Source: an uncultured Gemmatimonadaceae bacterium
GTDB lineage: Bacteria > Gemmatimonadota > Gemmatimonadetes > Gemmatimonadales > GWC2-71-9
Direction of reading: 5' to 3'
Assembly: GCA_964599725.1 (NCBI GenBank)
Contig: CAZRGT010000007.1
Location: 6,309-70,308 of the forward strand
DNA: 64,000 nt
Shown: piece by piece, positions 1 through 6,549 of the stretch
How the letters are laid out: every line of letters starts with the position of its first letter
Numbering within the stretch: position 1 is the first letter of the stretch
Made by a program: the position numbers and the translations under genes
The notes under the pieces: model-generated
What the model saw: the letters and a program-made list of their open reading frames with translations, nothing else
What the model was told of the DNA's origin: nothing
The model's database searches: none

Positions 1-1438
1 GGTTGAACCCGCCGGCTGTGTCGGGGCGATTGGCAAGCTCAGTGGTGGTGGGCGTCTCGAAAGATGAGCCGACGTTCCCGTACACGGTCAGCGCCACGGA
101 CGGGCTGAGCGCGATCCCGAGCGATCCGGACAAAGCTTTCATCAGTCGATCGCCCGAATCGTCGGGGTTTGTGGCGGTGATCAACCGGTCACGCACGTCG
201 AACCTCACCCAGTCGTAGCGCAGCCCGATGGTGAGCGTCGTCCGCGGGGACAGATCCAACGCGCTCTGCACGAAGGGGCCGATCTCGGTGACCCGCTCCA
301 GCTGATCGAGCGCGCGGGACGTATCGCGCCGAGCGGAATCGCCCGGCGTACTGAGGTAGTTCCAGTTGAGGCGGTCGTCGCGCTGATGCTGAAAATCGAC
401 GCCGGCGGTGGTGCGCTGCGTGAGTGGGCCGATGCGCATCGCCCGGGTCACGGTGGCCCGGACGCCGTAGTCGACACGCTGGAGGTCGATGTAGGTCGTG
501 GTGATCGGGTTCTTGAGATCCCGCGTCAGTCCGAACACCGTCACCGCGATCTCGCCGTCGCCCGACAGGGGTCGCCGCAGCGTCGCCCCCGCCTGCACCT
601 GCGTCACGTCTTTGCCGGCGTGGCGGTTCACGTTGAGGACAGGCGCCGTGTCCGGGTTGGCGGCGAGCTCGGCGCCGGTCAAGGAGCCGGGGTTGTCGGC
701 TCTGGGGTTGTCACCCACGTTCAGCAGCGCCGACATGGACCATACCGAGCCGACCGGAAACCGTACCCGCATGTTGAGGTTCCGCAGGTCGGCCGCACTG
801 TGATCCCGTTCTCCTTCATAGTCGAGACGCGAGACCGTCAGCTGCGCCATCCCGCCGCCCAGGCGGGCAGCGGTGGTGGATTGCCACTTGGTCCAGGTCC
901 GGTGCGCGCGACCCTCGAAGCGGCCCATCACCACGCGTGCGTCTTCGGTGATTCGCTCGGGAAGCCGCGGGTTGGTCCAGATGCTGATGACCCCACCGGC
1001 GGCATTGCCGAACAGCGACGATGACGAGCCGCGCAGCACCTCGATCCGGTCGGCCTCGCCCAGCTCCACGTTGGTCAGTTGGCCCTGGCCGTCCGGAAGC
1101 GTCTGGGGAATCCCGTCCAGGAGTACCTTGATGCCCCGCACCGCGAAGGCGGACCGGCTACCGAAGCCCCGGATCGAAATGCGCTGGTCCTGCGAGAAGT
1201 TGTAGCGGTTCGCCACGTACACGCCCGGCACGCTCGCCAATGCCTCGTCCAGCCCCCACGTGGGACGCCCGCGGCTGATGCGGTCGCGCTCCACGACGTG
1301 GATCGCCAGCGGGATCTTGGTGAGAGGCAGCGTCGTGCGGGCGGCCGATACCGTGAGCGGCGGGAGCACGTGACTCGGCAGGACGGAATCGGGTTGCTGG
1401 GCGTACGCCGGCCGGCCGCAGAGCCAGACGACCCCCAT
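1..1438 (-). CDS. TonB-dependent receptor (N-terminal part; C-terminus lies beyond the left window edge)
   Basis: This gene is absent from the ORF track because it runs off the edge. The reverse-strand ATG at 1438-1436 reads MGVVWLCGRPAYAQQPDSVLP..TLPLTKIPLAIHVVERDRI..VYVANRYNFSQDQRISIRGFGSRSAFAVRGIKVLLDGIPQTLPDGQGQL..IEVLRGSSSSLFGNAAGGVI. That is a signal peptide followed by TonB-receptor plug motifs. The frame is still open at nt 2-4 (..ELANRPDTAGGFN). Confidence 0.85.
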   Translation of the reverse strand, partial: MGVVWLCGRPAYAQQPDSVLPSHVLPPLTVSAARTTLPLTKIPLAIHVVERDRISRGRPTWGLDEALASVPGVYVANRYNFSQDQRISIRGFGSRSAFAVRGIKVLLDGIPQTLPDGQGQLTNVELGEADRIEVLRGSSSSLFGNAAGGVISIWTNPRLPERITEDARVVMGRFEGRAHRTWTKWQSTTAARLGGGMAQLTVSRLDYEGERDHSAADLRNLNMRVRFPVGSVWSMSALLNVGDNPRADNPGSLTGAELAANPDTAPVLNVNRHAGKDVTQVQAGATLRRPLSGDGEIAVTVFGLTRDLKNPITTTYIDLQRVDYGVRATVTRAMRIGPLTQRTTAGVDFQHQRDDRLNWNYLSTPGDSARRDTSRALDQLERVTEIGPFVQSALDLSPRTTLTIGLRYDWVRFDVRDRLITATNPDDSGDRLMKALSGSLGIALSPSVALTVYGNVGSSFETPTTTELANRPDTAGGFN

Positions 1439-1474
1439 TAGCGTCGACCACCGAGATCGAACCACGATCCCAAG

Positions 1475-1903
1475 TTACGTCAGCGCTTTGAGCCCGTCTC
1501 CCCGTGTGAACACCACCGTCCGGGCGCGACCGTCGACCCTCGACTGCACGATGTTGATCTGGTCGTGGAACAGCTCGAACAGCAGCGTATTCGACAGGCG
1601 TAACGCGCGCACCTCTCCGGGCGTGGCGCTGAATCGGATCCAGGTCACGTCGGCCTGCCGCTCCATGGTGCACCGTGTGGTCGGGAGGGCGCGCCCGGTC
1701 GCATCGCGCAGCGTCAGAACGGCCTGGGCATAGACACAGGCCGTTCCGGTCCGGCGCGCCAAGGCTTCCTCCAAGTCCTGCGTAAACACCCGGACGGCCA
1801 CCTCGAGCGTGCTCGTCTCCGGACGCCACGCCACGGTCGTGAGCGAGCTGTGCAGCGGATGAGCCGCTCCGATTGAGAGCGCCACGACCAGTGTGCTCAC
1901 CAT
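1475..1903 (-). CDS. DUF6702-like small exported protein
   Basis: This is the internal ATG (MVSTLVVALSIGAAHPLHSSLTTVAWRPETSTLEVAVRVFTQDLEEAL...) of ORF 1475..2002. The start lies in an ATGGTGA overlap with the HupE stop codon. I recognise the family from memory only. Confidence 0.6.
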   Translation of the reverse strand: MVSTLVVALSIGAAHPLHSSLTTVAWRPETSTLEVAVRVFTQDLEEALARRTGTACVYAQAVLTLRDATGRALPTTRCTMERQADVTWIRFSATPGEVRALRLSNTLLFELFHDQINIVQSRVDGRARTVVFTRGDGLKALT

Positions 1904-5101: not shown

Positions 5102-5191
5102 GGGTGAACTCCTCCAAAAAGGACGACGGGCGTAGAGCAGTGACATCGTCTCTACGCCCGTCGGGAGGGGTCGGATTGGGCCGCGCGGTCG

Positions 5192-5953
5192 CTAGTCGGT
5201 GTGACGCCAGGCGCCCAGCAGGCGCGGAATCTCGGTCGGCTGCGGGGATCCGCCCGCGGGCTCCTCGGTGAGTCCACAGCTGTCGATGAATCCCAGCGCC
5301 GTGATCTGCGGATCGACCGGGAGCACCAGCGCGGCGCGGCCGAGCGAGTCGGTGTTGAACACCCCCATGGACATCGGGGGCTTCCCCTTGGCGATCGCCC
5401 ACAGCTGGTAGATGCGGCCGGTGTACGCCGGCGGGAGGTCGAACGCGAACACGATGAACCTGCCGGTGGTGTGGTTCCAGAACACGCGCGCGGTGGGCTC
5501 CCGACCCGTGCCGGCGAGGGACACGACGTGGACCTCCGGCCCGGTGAGCGCCCGGATGACGGAGTCCCTCCCGGCGGCCACCGCATCAGCCTGAGCGACG
5601 CGTGCCTCGAGCGCTTCGACCCGCGACGCCAGACGCCGGGCGTACACGCCGGCGCCGACCGCGACAATCACCGCCGCCGCCGCGGCAAGCCAGCCGCTGG
5701 GCGGACCGCGGCGCCGTGCGGCGATCGGACGCACCCGCTTCGCCTCGGCCATGACCCGATCCCGCAATTCTGGTGGAGGCTCGGCTGCGGGGGCGCTATG
5801 CGCCAGGAGGCCGGCCACTTCGACGAGCGACCGCACCTCTGCCCGGCACACCTCGCAGCCCGCGAGATGGGCCTCGAACGCGCTGCGCTCCTCCGGCGCC
5901 AGCGCGCCCAGCGCGTACGGCGCCGCGGAGTCCAGCCATTGATGGTCGGTCAT
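5192..5953 (-). CDS. Anti-sigma factor (zf-HC2-like N-terminus, one TM, RskA-like periplasmic domain)
   Basis: The internal ATG gives MTDHQWLDSAAPYALGALAPEERSAFEAHLAGCEVCRAEV.. (an H-x3-C-x2-C motif). A TM segment WLAAAAAVIVAVGAGVYA follows. The C-terminal region contains YQLWAI..GKP. There is an ATGA overlap with the sigma gene stop. Confidence 0.8.
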   Translation of the reverse strand: MTDHQWLDSAAPYALGALAPEERSAFEAHLAGCEVCRAEVRSLVEVAGLLAHSAPAAEPPPELRDRVMAEAKRVRPIAARRRGPPSGWLAAAAAVIVAVGAGVYARRLASRVEALEARVAQADAVAAGRDSVIRALTGPEVHVVSLAGTGREPTARVFWNHTTGRFIVFAFDLPPAYTGRIYQLWAIAKGKPPMSMGVFNTDSLGRAALVLPVDPQITALGFIDSCGLTEEPAGGSPQPTEIPRLLGAWRHTD

Positions 5954-6549
5954 GACGCTCCTTCCAGCAGCGGGGTCAATAGTCCCCGCAGCTTCTCCAT
6001 CCCCGCCCGCATCCGGGTCTTGATCGTGCCGAGCGGCTCCGCCAGGCGCTCGGCGATCTCGGTCTGGGACAAGCCTTCGAAATAGGCTAGCTGGATCGCC
6101 ACGCGCTGAGACTCGGGGAGGGTGGCCAACGCGCGTCCCACGAGTTGTCGTGCTTCGTTGTGCTCGACCCGCCACCCCGGATCGGGGCCGGGCGGGGCGA
6201 GCGGTGTCGCCACACCATCATCGGACAGGTACGCGGCTCGCTCGTAGGCCCGCGCCCGACGCCCCCGGGCCCGGACCAGGTCGAGCGCGCGACTGCGCGC
6301 GATGGTGGCGAGCCAGGCCCCGACCGAGCCGCGCGCGGGATCGAACGCCCCCGCTTGCCGCCAGGCCTGCCCGAACGCGTCCATCACGACTTCGTCGGCG
6401 TCGGCGGGCTCGCGCACGATGGCCAGCGCCAGCGCGTACACGGTCTTCCCGTAGCGATCGTACAAGTCGCCCAGGGCGCGATCCTCCCCTCCCGCCATCC
6501 GCTCGACGAGCTGCCGATCGGGTGCCGGGGTGTTTGGCTCAGTCGTCAT
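5950..6549 (-). CDS. ECF (sigma-70 family) RNA polymerase sigma factor
   Basis: The internal ATG gives MTTEPNTPAPDRQLVERMAGGEDRALGDLYDRYGKTVYALA... Region 4 reads ESQRVAIQLAYFEGLSQTEIAERLAEPLGTIKTRMRAG. Confidence 0.9.
   Translation of the reverse strand: MTTEPNTPAPDRQLVERMAGGEDRALGDLYDRYGKTVYALALAIVREPADADEVVMDAFGQAWRQAGAFDPARGSVGAWLATIARSRALDLVRARGRRARAYERAAYLSDDGVATPLAPPGPDPGWRVEHNEARQLVGRALATLPESQRVAIQLAYFEGLSQTEIAERLAEPLGTIKTRMRAGMEKLRGLLTPLLEGAS

Follow-up and report, generated by a model that had tools for sequence, protein, structure and literature searches.

Organisation of the locus

We analysed a 64,000-nucleotide stretch of DNA from an uncultured Gemmatimonadaceae bacterium (GenBank assembly GCA_964599725.1, contig CAZRGT010000007.1, positions 6,309 to 70,308 of the forward strand), referred to at its full length as the window, and in particular a gene cluster at one end of it. 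This cluster is headed by an extracytoplasmic function (ECF) sigma factor and includes a DUF4331 protein encoded in two halves, a tetratricopeptide repeat (TPR) protein and a permease of the HupE_UreJ_2 family. The window has a G+C content of about 68%, and the names of homologues place the organism in the Gemmatimonadales. Eight consecutive open reading frames run along the minus strand from position 6549 down to nucleotide 2. A preliminary description of this DNA had listed the same eight same-strand genes, and the open reading frame map together with Pfam and NCBIfam searches agreed with it in the placement of the genes, exactly in the quoted junctions, and in the family named for every product. 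The features are as follows.

6650 to 6673, minus strand: P_sigma, an ECF-type promoter motif, (G)ATCCG-N16-CGTA(A), about 100 nucleotides upstream of the sigma start
5950 to 6549, minus strand: ECF sigma factor, SigK-like, 199 amino acids (Pfam Sigma70_r2 and r4)
5192 to 5953, minus strand: RskA-type membrane anti-sigma factor (Pfam RskA_C, 3e-22, and zf-HC2; NCBIfam NF052375)
5153 to 5176, minus strand: P_DUF4331, second copy of the ECF-type motif, CAATCCG-N16-CGTAGAG, 52 nucleotides upstream of ATG 5101
5116 to 5162, minus strand: 13-bp GC-rich hairpin followed by TTTTT (RNA fold; putative regulatory element)
4376 to 5101, minus strand: DUF4331 N-half, 241 amino acids, with signal peptide (Pfam DUF4331, 6e-35)
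3802 to 4368, minus strand: DUF4331 C-half, 188 amino acids, mainly helical lipoprotein (…VTAG before the Cys; Pfam DUF4331 positions 250-420 of 421)
2499 to 3797, minus strand: TPR protein, 432 amino acids, exported or membrane-anchored (Pfam TPR families)
1897 to 2499, minus strand: HupE_UreJ_2 inner-membrane permease, 200 amino acids (Pfam PF13795, 4e-43, 147 bits)
1475 to 1903, minus strand: DUF6702 periplasmic protein, 142 amino acids (Pfam PF20420, 2e-23)
2 to 1474, minus strand: TonB-dependent receptor, PqqU/YncD-like, N-terminal part of about 490 amino acids, running off the window (Pfam Plug and barrel)

The sigma and anti-sigma genes overlap by ATGA at 5950-5953, the TPR stop and HupE start share TGATG at 2497-2501, and the HupE stop and DUF6702 start share ATGGTGA at 1897-1903. 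The two DUF4331 genes lie 7 nucleotides apart (4369-4375) and the C-half is separated from the TPR gene by 4 nucleotides (3798-3801). By agreement with 241-residue homologues we take ATG 5101 as the start of the N-half, which leaves a gap of 90 nucleotides (5102-5191) after the anti-sigma stop at 5192; an ATG at 5146 sits at the predicted transcription start and is out of frame in relatives. The receptor probably starts at TTG 1474, immediately past the DUF6702 stop, because a normal signal peptide ending in …AYA before QQ then results.

The DUF4331-TPR pair and its permease partners

Counts for the Gemmatimonadota come from 80 species genomes, with only those loci that have room for a given gene as the denominator; the genome scan matched Gemmatimonadota only, and more distant contexts were taken from protein look-ups and a metagenome scan. 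The common order in this phylum is DUF4331N-DUF4331C-TPR-HupE_UreJ_2-DUF6702, with the TPR gene present in 66 of 68 loci, HupE_UreJ_2 in 52 of 62 and DUF6702 in 50 of 61. One carrier of the cluster (L024) is a metagenome-assembled genome of Gemmatimonas sp. Orthologues of the TPR protein also follow DUF4331 in cyanobacteria, in L091 (an unrelated soil contig) and in locus L095; over about 400 residues they are 29-37% identical to it (E 4e-48 to 2e-61). Searches of the Protein Data Bank (PDB) with the TPR protein gave no specific relative; the matches were mostly designed consensus TPRs, together with generic ones such as LapB.

The permease that accompanies this pair differs from one lineage to another. 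Three cyanobacterial loci carry a fused DUF4331, then a TPR protein that is 32-37% identical over about 400 residues (E 6e-52 to 2e-61), then a NicO permease. In L091 the order is DUF4331, the orthologous TPR gene and a 375-residue HupE_UreJ_2 protein with an extra N-terminal domain, and at the P0278 locus a 413-residue HupE_UreJ_2 gene is convergent with DUF4331-TPR. L095 combines a split DUF4331, its C-half again a lipoprotein, with the orthologous TPR gene (E 4e-48), a CbiM-CbiQ fusion that starts MHIPD and reaches 280 bits against the CbiM model (cut-off 225), and CbiO. Among 80 further metagenome loci the TPR gene follows DUF4331 wherever the contig permits, and by Pfam no transporter family other than NicO (9), CbiM/CbiQ (4) and HupE_UreJ_2 (4) recurs after it, tblastn adding a few more cases. 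CbiM/NikM systems of the ECF type (here energy-coupling factor) are importers (PMC3945884). The constancy of DUF4331-TPR, set beside the exchange of unrelated Ni/Co permeases, is the main argument for a role in nickel or cobalt acquisition. The preliminary description had suggested a test of whether the neighbourhood is conserved across genomes. A DUF4331-TPR-permease arrangement does recur across phyla, and conservation extends to DUF4331, TPR, HupE and DUF6702 and not to the TonB-dependent receptor, which is present in 7 of 54 Gemmatimonadota loci.

The permease of the window matches only HupE_UreJ_2 (PF13795) at E<=0.01 and has no N-terminal extracytoplasmic domain. It had earlier been labelled an established Ni/Co permease of the HupE/UreJ type. 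The family relationship stands through PF13795, and the label itself belongs to the classical HupE_UreJ family (PF04955), for members of which Ni transport has been shown. The window protein does not match PF04955, to which a close orthologue and four distant ones show a weak match. We know of no direct transport assay for a member of PF13795.

Two further kinds of gene were seen beside the pair. One clade has, between the TPR gene and CbiMQ-CbiO, a gene for a prepilin-type protein of about 300 residues (N-methylation motif, DUF1559, H-X9-DG C-terminal domain); it follows the TPR gene in L095 (8193-9089), where the prepilin genes are of the HX9DG type, and in L099, L101, L102 and L117. After the cyanobacterial NicO gene, L089 (10138-10761) and L093 (12035-12685) encode a protein of 207-216 residues that matches no family; it starts with a signal peptide and ends in a PEP-CTERM-like tail (…PEPS, a transmembrane segment and basic residues).

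A split DUF4331 with a candidate metal-binding N-terminus

Judged from their profile matches, the two DUF4331 genes together cover one domain. The N-half scored 121.6 bits against Pfam PF14224 (cut-off 27), with matches up to profile position 236 and the best stretch at 127-236, and the C-half scored 56 bits over the 250-420 interval against the same cut-off. The N-half has 3505 homologues, the best 120 of which are 198-250 residues long (most 235-243), and the C-half has 2735, of 170-207 residues. A lipobox ([..][AG] followed by Cys) is present in 118 of the best 120 homologues of the C-half, which is accordingly predicted to be lipidated, and the C-half adjoins the N-half in 75 of 75 Gemmatimonadota loci with room. 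We considered and rejected a frameshift or pseudogene origin of the split, given the thousands of stand-alone homologues of each half, the separate lipobox of the C-half and the invariable adjacency. Among distant relatives both fused forms (380-540 residues) and split forms occur.

Modelling the two halves together, as the preliminary description had suggested, gave a confident result. The AlphaFold model of the concatenated mature N- and C-halves reached a predicted template modelling score (pTM) of 0.85 and a mean predicted local distance difference test score (pLDDT) of 80, with a beta-sandwich N-half and a helical C-half; the N-half alone was also modelled as a beta-sandwich (pLDDT 84). 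Foldseek comparison of both models with the PDB returned no match at E<=1e-3 and TM-scores of at most 0.22, and PDB sequence searches with single DUF4331 proteins and with a 45-sequence profile found no relative. Pfam, NCBIfam and the PDB sequence and profile searches detected no catalytic motif or cofactor-binding family in DUF4331, and the literature searched does not mention DUF4331, PF14224 or IPR025566.

The predicted mature N-terminus of the N-half reads S-D-H-Q-D-T-P, after …VALA. The pattern (S/A)-D-H-x-(D/E)-x-P stands directly after a signal peptide obeying the -3/-1 rule in 104 of 116 N-complete DUF4331 representatives, and in a 45-sequence alignment (33-53% identity) D33 is invariant and H34 nearly so. 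A free X-X-His N-terminus without Pro at position 2 is the amino-terminal Cu(II)- and Ni(II)-binding (ATCUN) motif. By its sequence the N-terminus of DUF4331 fits a site of this type, and metal binding there is predicted.

DUF6702 and other proteins with an N-terminal histidine

The window's DUF6702 protein scored 83.6 bits against PF20420 (cut-off 24), and removal of its signal peptide (…IGAA followed by HPLH) would leave a histidine at the N-terminus. HP(L/I/M)H comes after the signal segment in about 52 of the 58 DUF6702 orthologue rows examined, with Ala at -1 in 29. The family had been described as one without an assigned function; that view is superseded by a 2025 signal-strapping study, which characterises the Pseudomonas protein PaDUF6702 as a periplasmic "sequesterase" with affinities of 5.6 pM for Ni and about 3 nM for Co and Cu (hence Ni>Co>Cu) and a tri-His site made up of His1, His28 and His32 (PMC12537917). 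The same study describes HupE/UreJ-2 permeases that carry fused "anglerase" domains with an N-terminal His.

Among the permeases linked to DUF4331-TPR, the predicted mature chain starts with His after …A in 5 of 5 fused HupE proteins and in 10 of 10 fused NicO proteins examined. The exact fused architecture of the anglerase-HupE/UreJ-2 systems, HupE_UreJ_2 with an extracytoplasmic domain and a mature N-terminal His, is found in the distant DUF4331 loci L091, L116, L122, L131 and L132. The window differs in that its 200-residue permease has no extra domain and its N-terminal-His protein, DUF6702, is encoded by a separate overlapping gene, so that it does not represent such a fusion, although its function may be analogous. 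We regard the overlapping HupE_UreJ_2 and DUF6702 genes of Gemmatimonadota as what looks like an unfused version of the anglerase device; the likeness is one of architecture only, since hhalign comparisons among DUF6702, the HupE-fused and the NicO-fused N-terminal domains gave probabilities below 5% and detected no homology. Neither kind of fused domain matched a Pfam family, and DUF6702 found no specific relative in the PDB. The passages of PMC12537917 found by term searches, and its DUF6702 section, make no mention of DUF4331, of a TPR partner, of ECF control or of versions linked to NicO or CbiM.

The NicO proteins linked to DUF4331-TPR have an N-terminal extracytoplasmic domain of about 200 residues, starting at the His of HP(L/M)GNF(S/T)INHY, and long His-rich cytoplasmic loops; they were seen in L087 (10950-12623), L093 (10610-12013), L108, L124, L135, L139, L148, L150, L155 and L167. 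From its sequence the fused NicO protein looks like an anglerase-type fusion on another transporter family. A different small protein, of 193-195 residues, is encoded between the anti-sigma gene and DUF4331N in L001 (9381-9962), L002 (9400-9987) and L021, with the ECF promoter motif before its gene. It matched no Pfam or NCBIfam family; after the predicted cleavage it would begin Q-M-H-(H/Q), another X-X-His start, with a C-x-x-C behind it, and the remainder looked, on impression only, like a small beta-barrel.

A sigma/anti-sigma pair and two putative promoters

The sigma factor has regions r2 and r4 only and is 199 residues long, as are its orthologues. Its top NCBIfam matches, PRK12519 (171 bits, cut-off 222) and SigK PRK09646 (146 bits, cut-off 226), both fall below the curated cut-offs, and we describe it by similarity as SigK-like and not as an equivalog. 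The adjoining anti-sigma factor matched NF052375 with 169 bits (cut-off 100) and shows a cytoplasmic zf-HC2/RskA_N part, one transmembrane helix and a periplasmic RskA_C domain. The pair is thus of the SigK/RskA type, and resembles SigK-RskA of mycobacteria and Yersinia in domain make-up, in its overlapping genes and in an autoregulatory-type promoter copy before the sigma gene. The differences are that the window sigma falls short of the SigK model cut-off and that mpt70/mpt83, the regulon known for SigK, bears no relation to DUF4331. Surface signalling of the FecI/FecR/FecA type was considered and rejected: the anti-sigma factor is RskA-type and the receptor lacks a signalling domain.

The string ATCC-N16-CGTA occurs exactly twice on the two strands of the whole window, once before the sigma gene and once before DUF4331N. 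Its fuller form is (C/G)AATCC(G)-N16-CGTA(G/A), and the copy before sigma overlaps the stop of the upstream LepB gene. In a census of 1.27 Mb of related loci (L001-L086), the strict motif was counted 106 times on the operon strand against 38 times on the opposite strand. With its N16 spacing constant, it lies within 260 nucleotides upstream of DUF4331N in 73 of the 81 evaluable loci of that set, and some 24 others stand before the sigma gene or before a first gene that has been inserted. The background frequency in metagenome loci is near one per 100 kb on each strand, and in another DUF4331 clade none of the 73 evaluable loci has the motif. Four relatives (L007, L011, L014 and L016) have 1.5-3 kb of extra DNA between the anti-sigma gene and DUF4331N and retain the DUF4331N promoter.

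The sigma/anti-sigma pair is retained despite rearrangement of the Gemmatimonadota loci. In 15 genomes it stands upstream and has its own copy of the motif; in 17 it lies downstream of DUF6702 on the same strand and has none, and there it would therefore form the tail of the DUF4331 operon. Retention through rearrangement, together with a promoter motif common to the neighbouring genes, is the signature of an autoregulated ECF regulon. These two observations support a functional tie between the pair and the DUF4331-TPR-HupE-DUF6702 genes, as predicted from sequence, and they uphold the earlier proposal of a dedicated sigma/anti-sigma switch. Beyond the phylum, the motif precedes both DUF4331 and a 43%-identical ECF sigma gene in L091, and the cyanobacterial loci L087 and L089 have TGCATCC-N16-CGTA 135 and 96 nucleotides, respectively, upstream of DUF4331 with no sigma gene within 8 kb. 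This suggests that the cyanobacterial DUF4331 genes may be controlled by a SigK-like sigma factor encoded elsewhere.

Between the anti-sigma gene and DUF4331N lies a hairpin with arms at 5162-5150 (GACGGGCGTAGAG) and 5137-5125 (CTCTACGCCCGTC) and a T-run at 5120-5116, which overlaps the -10 element of P_DUF4331. Its RNA folds at -30.7 kcal/mol (z -5.3), a stability reached by none of 200 shuffles, and close relatives retain its arms, L003 showing a compensatory change. It is probably a terminator or insulator against read-through from the sigma/anti-sigma unit, and may alternatively serve as an operator rather than as the terminator of that transcript. A second small stem nearby could pair with the Shine-Dalgarno region. 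A scan of positions 1-7000 for sigma-70-type promoters and canonical terminators found nothing above chance. The preliminary description had favoured a single transcription unit. We consider instead that the cluster, with predicted start sites near 5146 and 6643 and a predicted termination, probably comprises two units of one regulon, because two copies of the ECF promoter are present with the terminator-like hairpin (5116-5162) between them.

Elsewhere in the window, at about 13290-14380 on the minus strand, lies another SigK-like sigma gene (42% identical to the first) and, after it, a second gene for an RskA-like anti-sigma factor (28% identical); the relatives L003 and L004 have the same pair at 669-1825. 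Matches to ECF-like sigma factors also occur at about 22.9, 41.8 and 48.6 kb. The strict promoter motif was not found near the second pair or near these other matches in the window.

The TonB-dependent receptor

All seven Gemmatimonadota loci with the receptor belong to the window's own subclade, and among distant loci only the Gemmatimonadota-like metagenome contig L175 has it. A full-length orthologue of 710 residues aligns end to end with the structures of E. coli YncD/PqqU (E 1e-93), deposited under the name "pyrroloquinoline quinone transporter", with the next PDB match at only 33 bits. The receptor consists of Plug and barrel only, the plug starting at residue 40 and the orthologue aligning to PqqU from residue 45; neither Pfam nor the full-length alignment revealed an N-terminal signalling domain. 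The likeness to PqqU, an importer of pyrroloquinoline quinone (PQQ), extends to the neighbourhood, since a PQQ-dependent dehydrogenase follows the receptor in sister lineages (L002, L020 and L050); in the sister subclade L011-L014, L016 and L021, a PQQ-dependent dehydrogenase and a sulfocyanin-like cupredoxin occupy the receptor's position. It is limited by a score of 378 bits against the NCBIfam PqqU equivalog NF041535 (cut-off 1200), by the lack of a PQQ enzyme in the 64-kb window and by the position of the gene at the end of a metal-type operon.

These observations do not favour the earlier view of the receptor as the outer-membrane gate for the same metal. It is probably a lineage-specific addition that was joined to the operon and imports PQQ or a similar small molecule, as judged from its closest solved relative and its neighbours. 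Beside it, L002 (15703-18094) carries a gene for a PQQ-dependent enzyme of the alcohol dehydrogenase family (TIGR03075, 446 bits, just below cut-off) and one for a sulfocyanin-like cupredoxin. The W-D-L-D stretch of the dehydrogenase resembles the Asp-x-Asp signature of lanthanide-dependent enzymes. Lanthanide uptake, brought to mind by the neighbouring PQQ dehydrogenases and the Asp-rich DUF4331 motifs, was considered and is regarded as a remote possibility, the transporter partners being Ni/Co families.

Upstream of the sigma gene, window positions 6674-10828 encode a LepB-type signal peptidase, a PD40/TolB-like beta-propeller protein and a divergent transketolase, and this synteny is retained in the close relatives L002-L005.

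A proposed metal capture and relay system

Taken together, the gene context and predicted protein features point to an ECF-controlled periplasmic system that captures nickel or cobalt (or copper) and relays it to an inner-membrane permease, a reading to which we give a probability of roughly 0.55. The conserved functional unit is the sigma/anti-sigma pair with DUF4331N/C-TPR-HupE_UreJ_2-DUF6702, and the receptor is accessory. The idea of an envelope-spanning uptake pathway in the preliminary description is thus reasonable as regards metal uptake, and is unsupported as regards the receptor gate and the single transcript.

The mechanism that we infer, including the metal, the direction of transport, the order of hand-over, the inducing signal and the signal-peptide cleavage sites, would run as follows. 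The RskA-type factor in the membrane would hold the SigK-like sigma factor, and its release would activate the two AATCC-N16-CGTA promoters, so that sigma drives its own promoter and that of DUF4331N-DUF4331C-TPR-HupE_UreJ_2-DUF6702, with the PqqU-like receptor translationally abutting in this lineage. DUF4331 would combine two parts, a soluble half with a beta-sandwich fold and a helical half that is a lipoprotein, and signal-peptide cleavage would expose the (S/A)-Asp-His ATCUN-type N-terminus on the soluble half. The periplasmic TPR protein may scaffold DUF4331, and DUF6702, with its N-terminal His, would act as the unfused counterpart of the permease-fused domains and hand the metal to HupE_UreJ_2 for import.

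Several points weigh against this reading. The metal is assigned from neighbouring genes, and among distant loci with room for one, about 40% lack a recognised transporter beside the TPR gene. DUF4198 proteins, which are periplasmic, bind Ni in one species (IsDUF4198) and Zn in another (Zcp, Neisseria gonorrhoeae), and specificity is therefore not readable from family membership. The cyanobacterial NicO protein best matches an RcnA-type "nickel/cobalt efflux transporter" model (120 bits, below cut-off), and the direction of transport in that branch is not settled. The signal-peptide cleavage sites were assigned by the -3/-1 rule only and are thus predicted. The SDHQDTP region, singled out earlier as a possible metal site, does fall at the predicted mature N-terminus, and the first 10 residues of the DUF4331 models are of low confidence (pLDDT 55-64). 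In L091 the motif follows a Cys (…ARC, then SDH), where lipidation would block a free N-terminus, and the many invariant Asp residues of DUF4331 would suit hard or other cations. Regulation is also unlike that of textbook Ni/Co uptake genes, which are usually under NikR or B12/NiCo riboswitches. No B12 or NiCo riboswitch was found in window positions 1-9000 (E<=1) or in 18 distant loci (gathering score), and NikR gave no tblastn match in the window or in any locus, a weak negative as the query sequence was approximate. The metal genes best known to be under ECF control are those for resistance, as in CnrYXH.

Alternative explanations

The same architecture and mechanism could serve copper or zinc as the physiological metal, a possible if unlikely variant. 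An X-X-His N-terminus suits Cu(II) as well as Ni(II), both it and N-terminal-His sites bind Cu(II) very well, and the nanomolar affinity of PaDUF6702 for Cu (3 nM; PMC12537917), the Ni/Zn difference among the DUF4198 proteins and the cupredoxin and PQQ dehydrogenase genes that follow DUF6702 or the receptor in L002, L011-L014, L016, L020, L021 and L050 all point the same way. Nickel or cobalt is nevertheless the common known substrate of the alternating HupE/UreJ-type, NicO and CbiM/NikM families; PaDUF6702 has a preference for Ni of about three orders of magnitude (PMC12537917), and the cupredoxin neighbourhood is limited to one Gemmatimonadota subclade. We are more doubtful that DUF4331 is the client rather than the captor, namely an exported metalloprotein or enzyme of an envelope-stress response that the permease and an N-terminal-His chaperone supply with metal and the TPR protein assembles, with the ECF sigma inducing it in response to envelope or redox stress. 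Control by an ECF/RskA pair is typical of regulons for envelope stress, SigK has been tied to katG expression and its cysteines discussed (PMC7509140), and DUF4331 is large (about 400 residues when fused), with a two-domain fold lacking a PDB neighbour and many invariant acidic residues; RcnA-like NicO partners could, moreover, deliver metal outward. Against such a role stand the CbiMQO partners, which are importers, the lack of any detected catalytic motif or cofactor-binding family, and the position of the most conserved DUF4331 feature at the extreme mature N-terminus, as in metal-capture proteins.

The model of the preliminary description, in which a single eight-gene transcript encodes a receptor that imports the same metal as a chelate and DUF4331, TPR, DUF6702 and HupE relay it inward, is also improbable in our view. 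The receptor does abut DUF6702 in the window's lineage (gap of 0-36 nucleotides) and follows it shortly in close relatives, and no terminator was seen between the two genes; the receptor is therefore likely to be co-transcribed with the DUF4331 genes. What speaks against the model is the sparse distribution of the receptor, its end-to-end match to PqqU/YncD, its link to PQQ dehydrogenase genes in sister clades, and the second promoter with hairpin and T-run that separates sigma/anti-sigma from the other genes; lacking a signalling domain, the receptor is no FecA-type partner of that pair. A resistance device, in which the ECF sigma senses excess periplasmic metal, the permease exports it and DUF4331 and DUF6702 act as buffers, appears very unlikely. 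CnrYXH offers a precedent of ECF-controlled Ni/Co resistance, and the NicO partners with long His-rich loops have their best match in the efflux model named above. However, that match is under the family cut-off, no recurrent RND or CDF efflux genes were found in the neighbourhood, and HupE/UreJ-type permeases (Brito et al. 2010, as cited in a later paper) and CbiM/NikM partners (PMC3945884) are uptake systems.

Relation to known systems and significance

Periplasmic metal capture feeding an importer is a known kind of system, and DUF4331-TPR is new to it. The pair adjoins members of all three importer groups, HupE/UreJ, NiCoT/NicO and CbiMNQO/NikMNQO, and is not among the accessory components described for them. 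For CbiMNQO/NikMNQO importers such components are NikK and NikL. CbiM/NikM itself uses its extreme N-terminus (Met1/His2) to hold metal in a planar, ATCUN-like site (PMC3945884). DUF4198 proteins (IsDUF4198 and Zcp) resemble DUF4331 in being exported and beta-rich, in having N-terminal His sites, in serving metal acquisition and in lying near TonB receptors and metal transporters. They differ in that no sequence or structural similarity to DUF4331 was detected, and in that the DUF4331 His is at position 3 rather than 1, the protein is twice the size and it has a dedicated TPR partner.

In conclusion, what is new here is DUF4331 together with its TPR protein, a pair that accompanies Ni/Co transporters widely, has no structural precedent and carries an ATCUN-type N-terminus. 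More tentatively, and with somewhat less than even confidence, we propose that DUF4331 and its dedicated TPR protein form an unrecognised, widespread extracytoplasmic front end for Ni/Co import that captures metal at an ATCUN site, relays it to N-terminal-His domains that are fused to members of three unrelated importer families or encoded beside them, and belongs to a SigK-like ECF regulon in several phyla, without a FecA-type receptor. DUF4331, which has thousands of members in soil bacteria and cyanobacteria, thereby gains a testable role in periplasmic Ni/Co capture for three importer families. The N-terminal-His idea of 2025 would extend to a class with His at position 3 (ATCUN) and to NicO-fused domains, and the series of split and fused forms, with DUF4331 made either as an N-half plus lipoprotein C-half or as a single chain, and with DUF6702 as a free protein or its counterpart as permease-fused domains, should be useful for dissecting hand-over. 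The AATCC-N16-CGTA motif connects metal acquisition with a SigK-like ECF sigma factor in Gemmatimonadota, and probably in cyanobacteria too, and is a starting point toward the signal sensed by RskA-type anti-sigma factors. In soils and waters, urease, hydrogenase and B12-dependent metabolism all depend on a limiting supply of nickel and cobalt, so that such a system would be relevant to trace-metal ecology.

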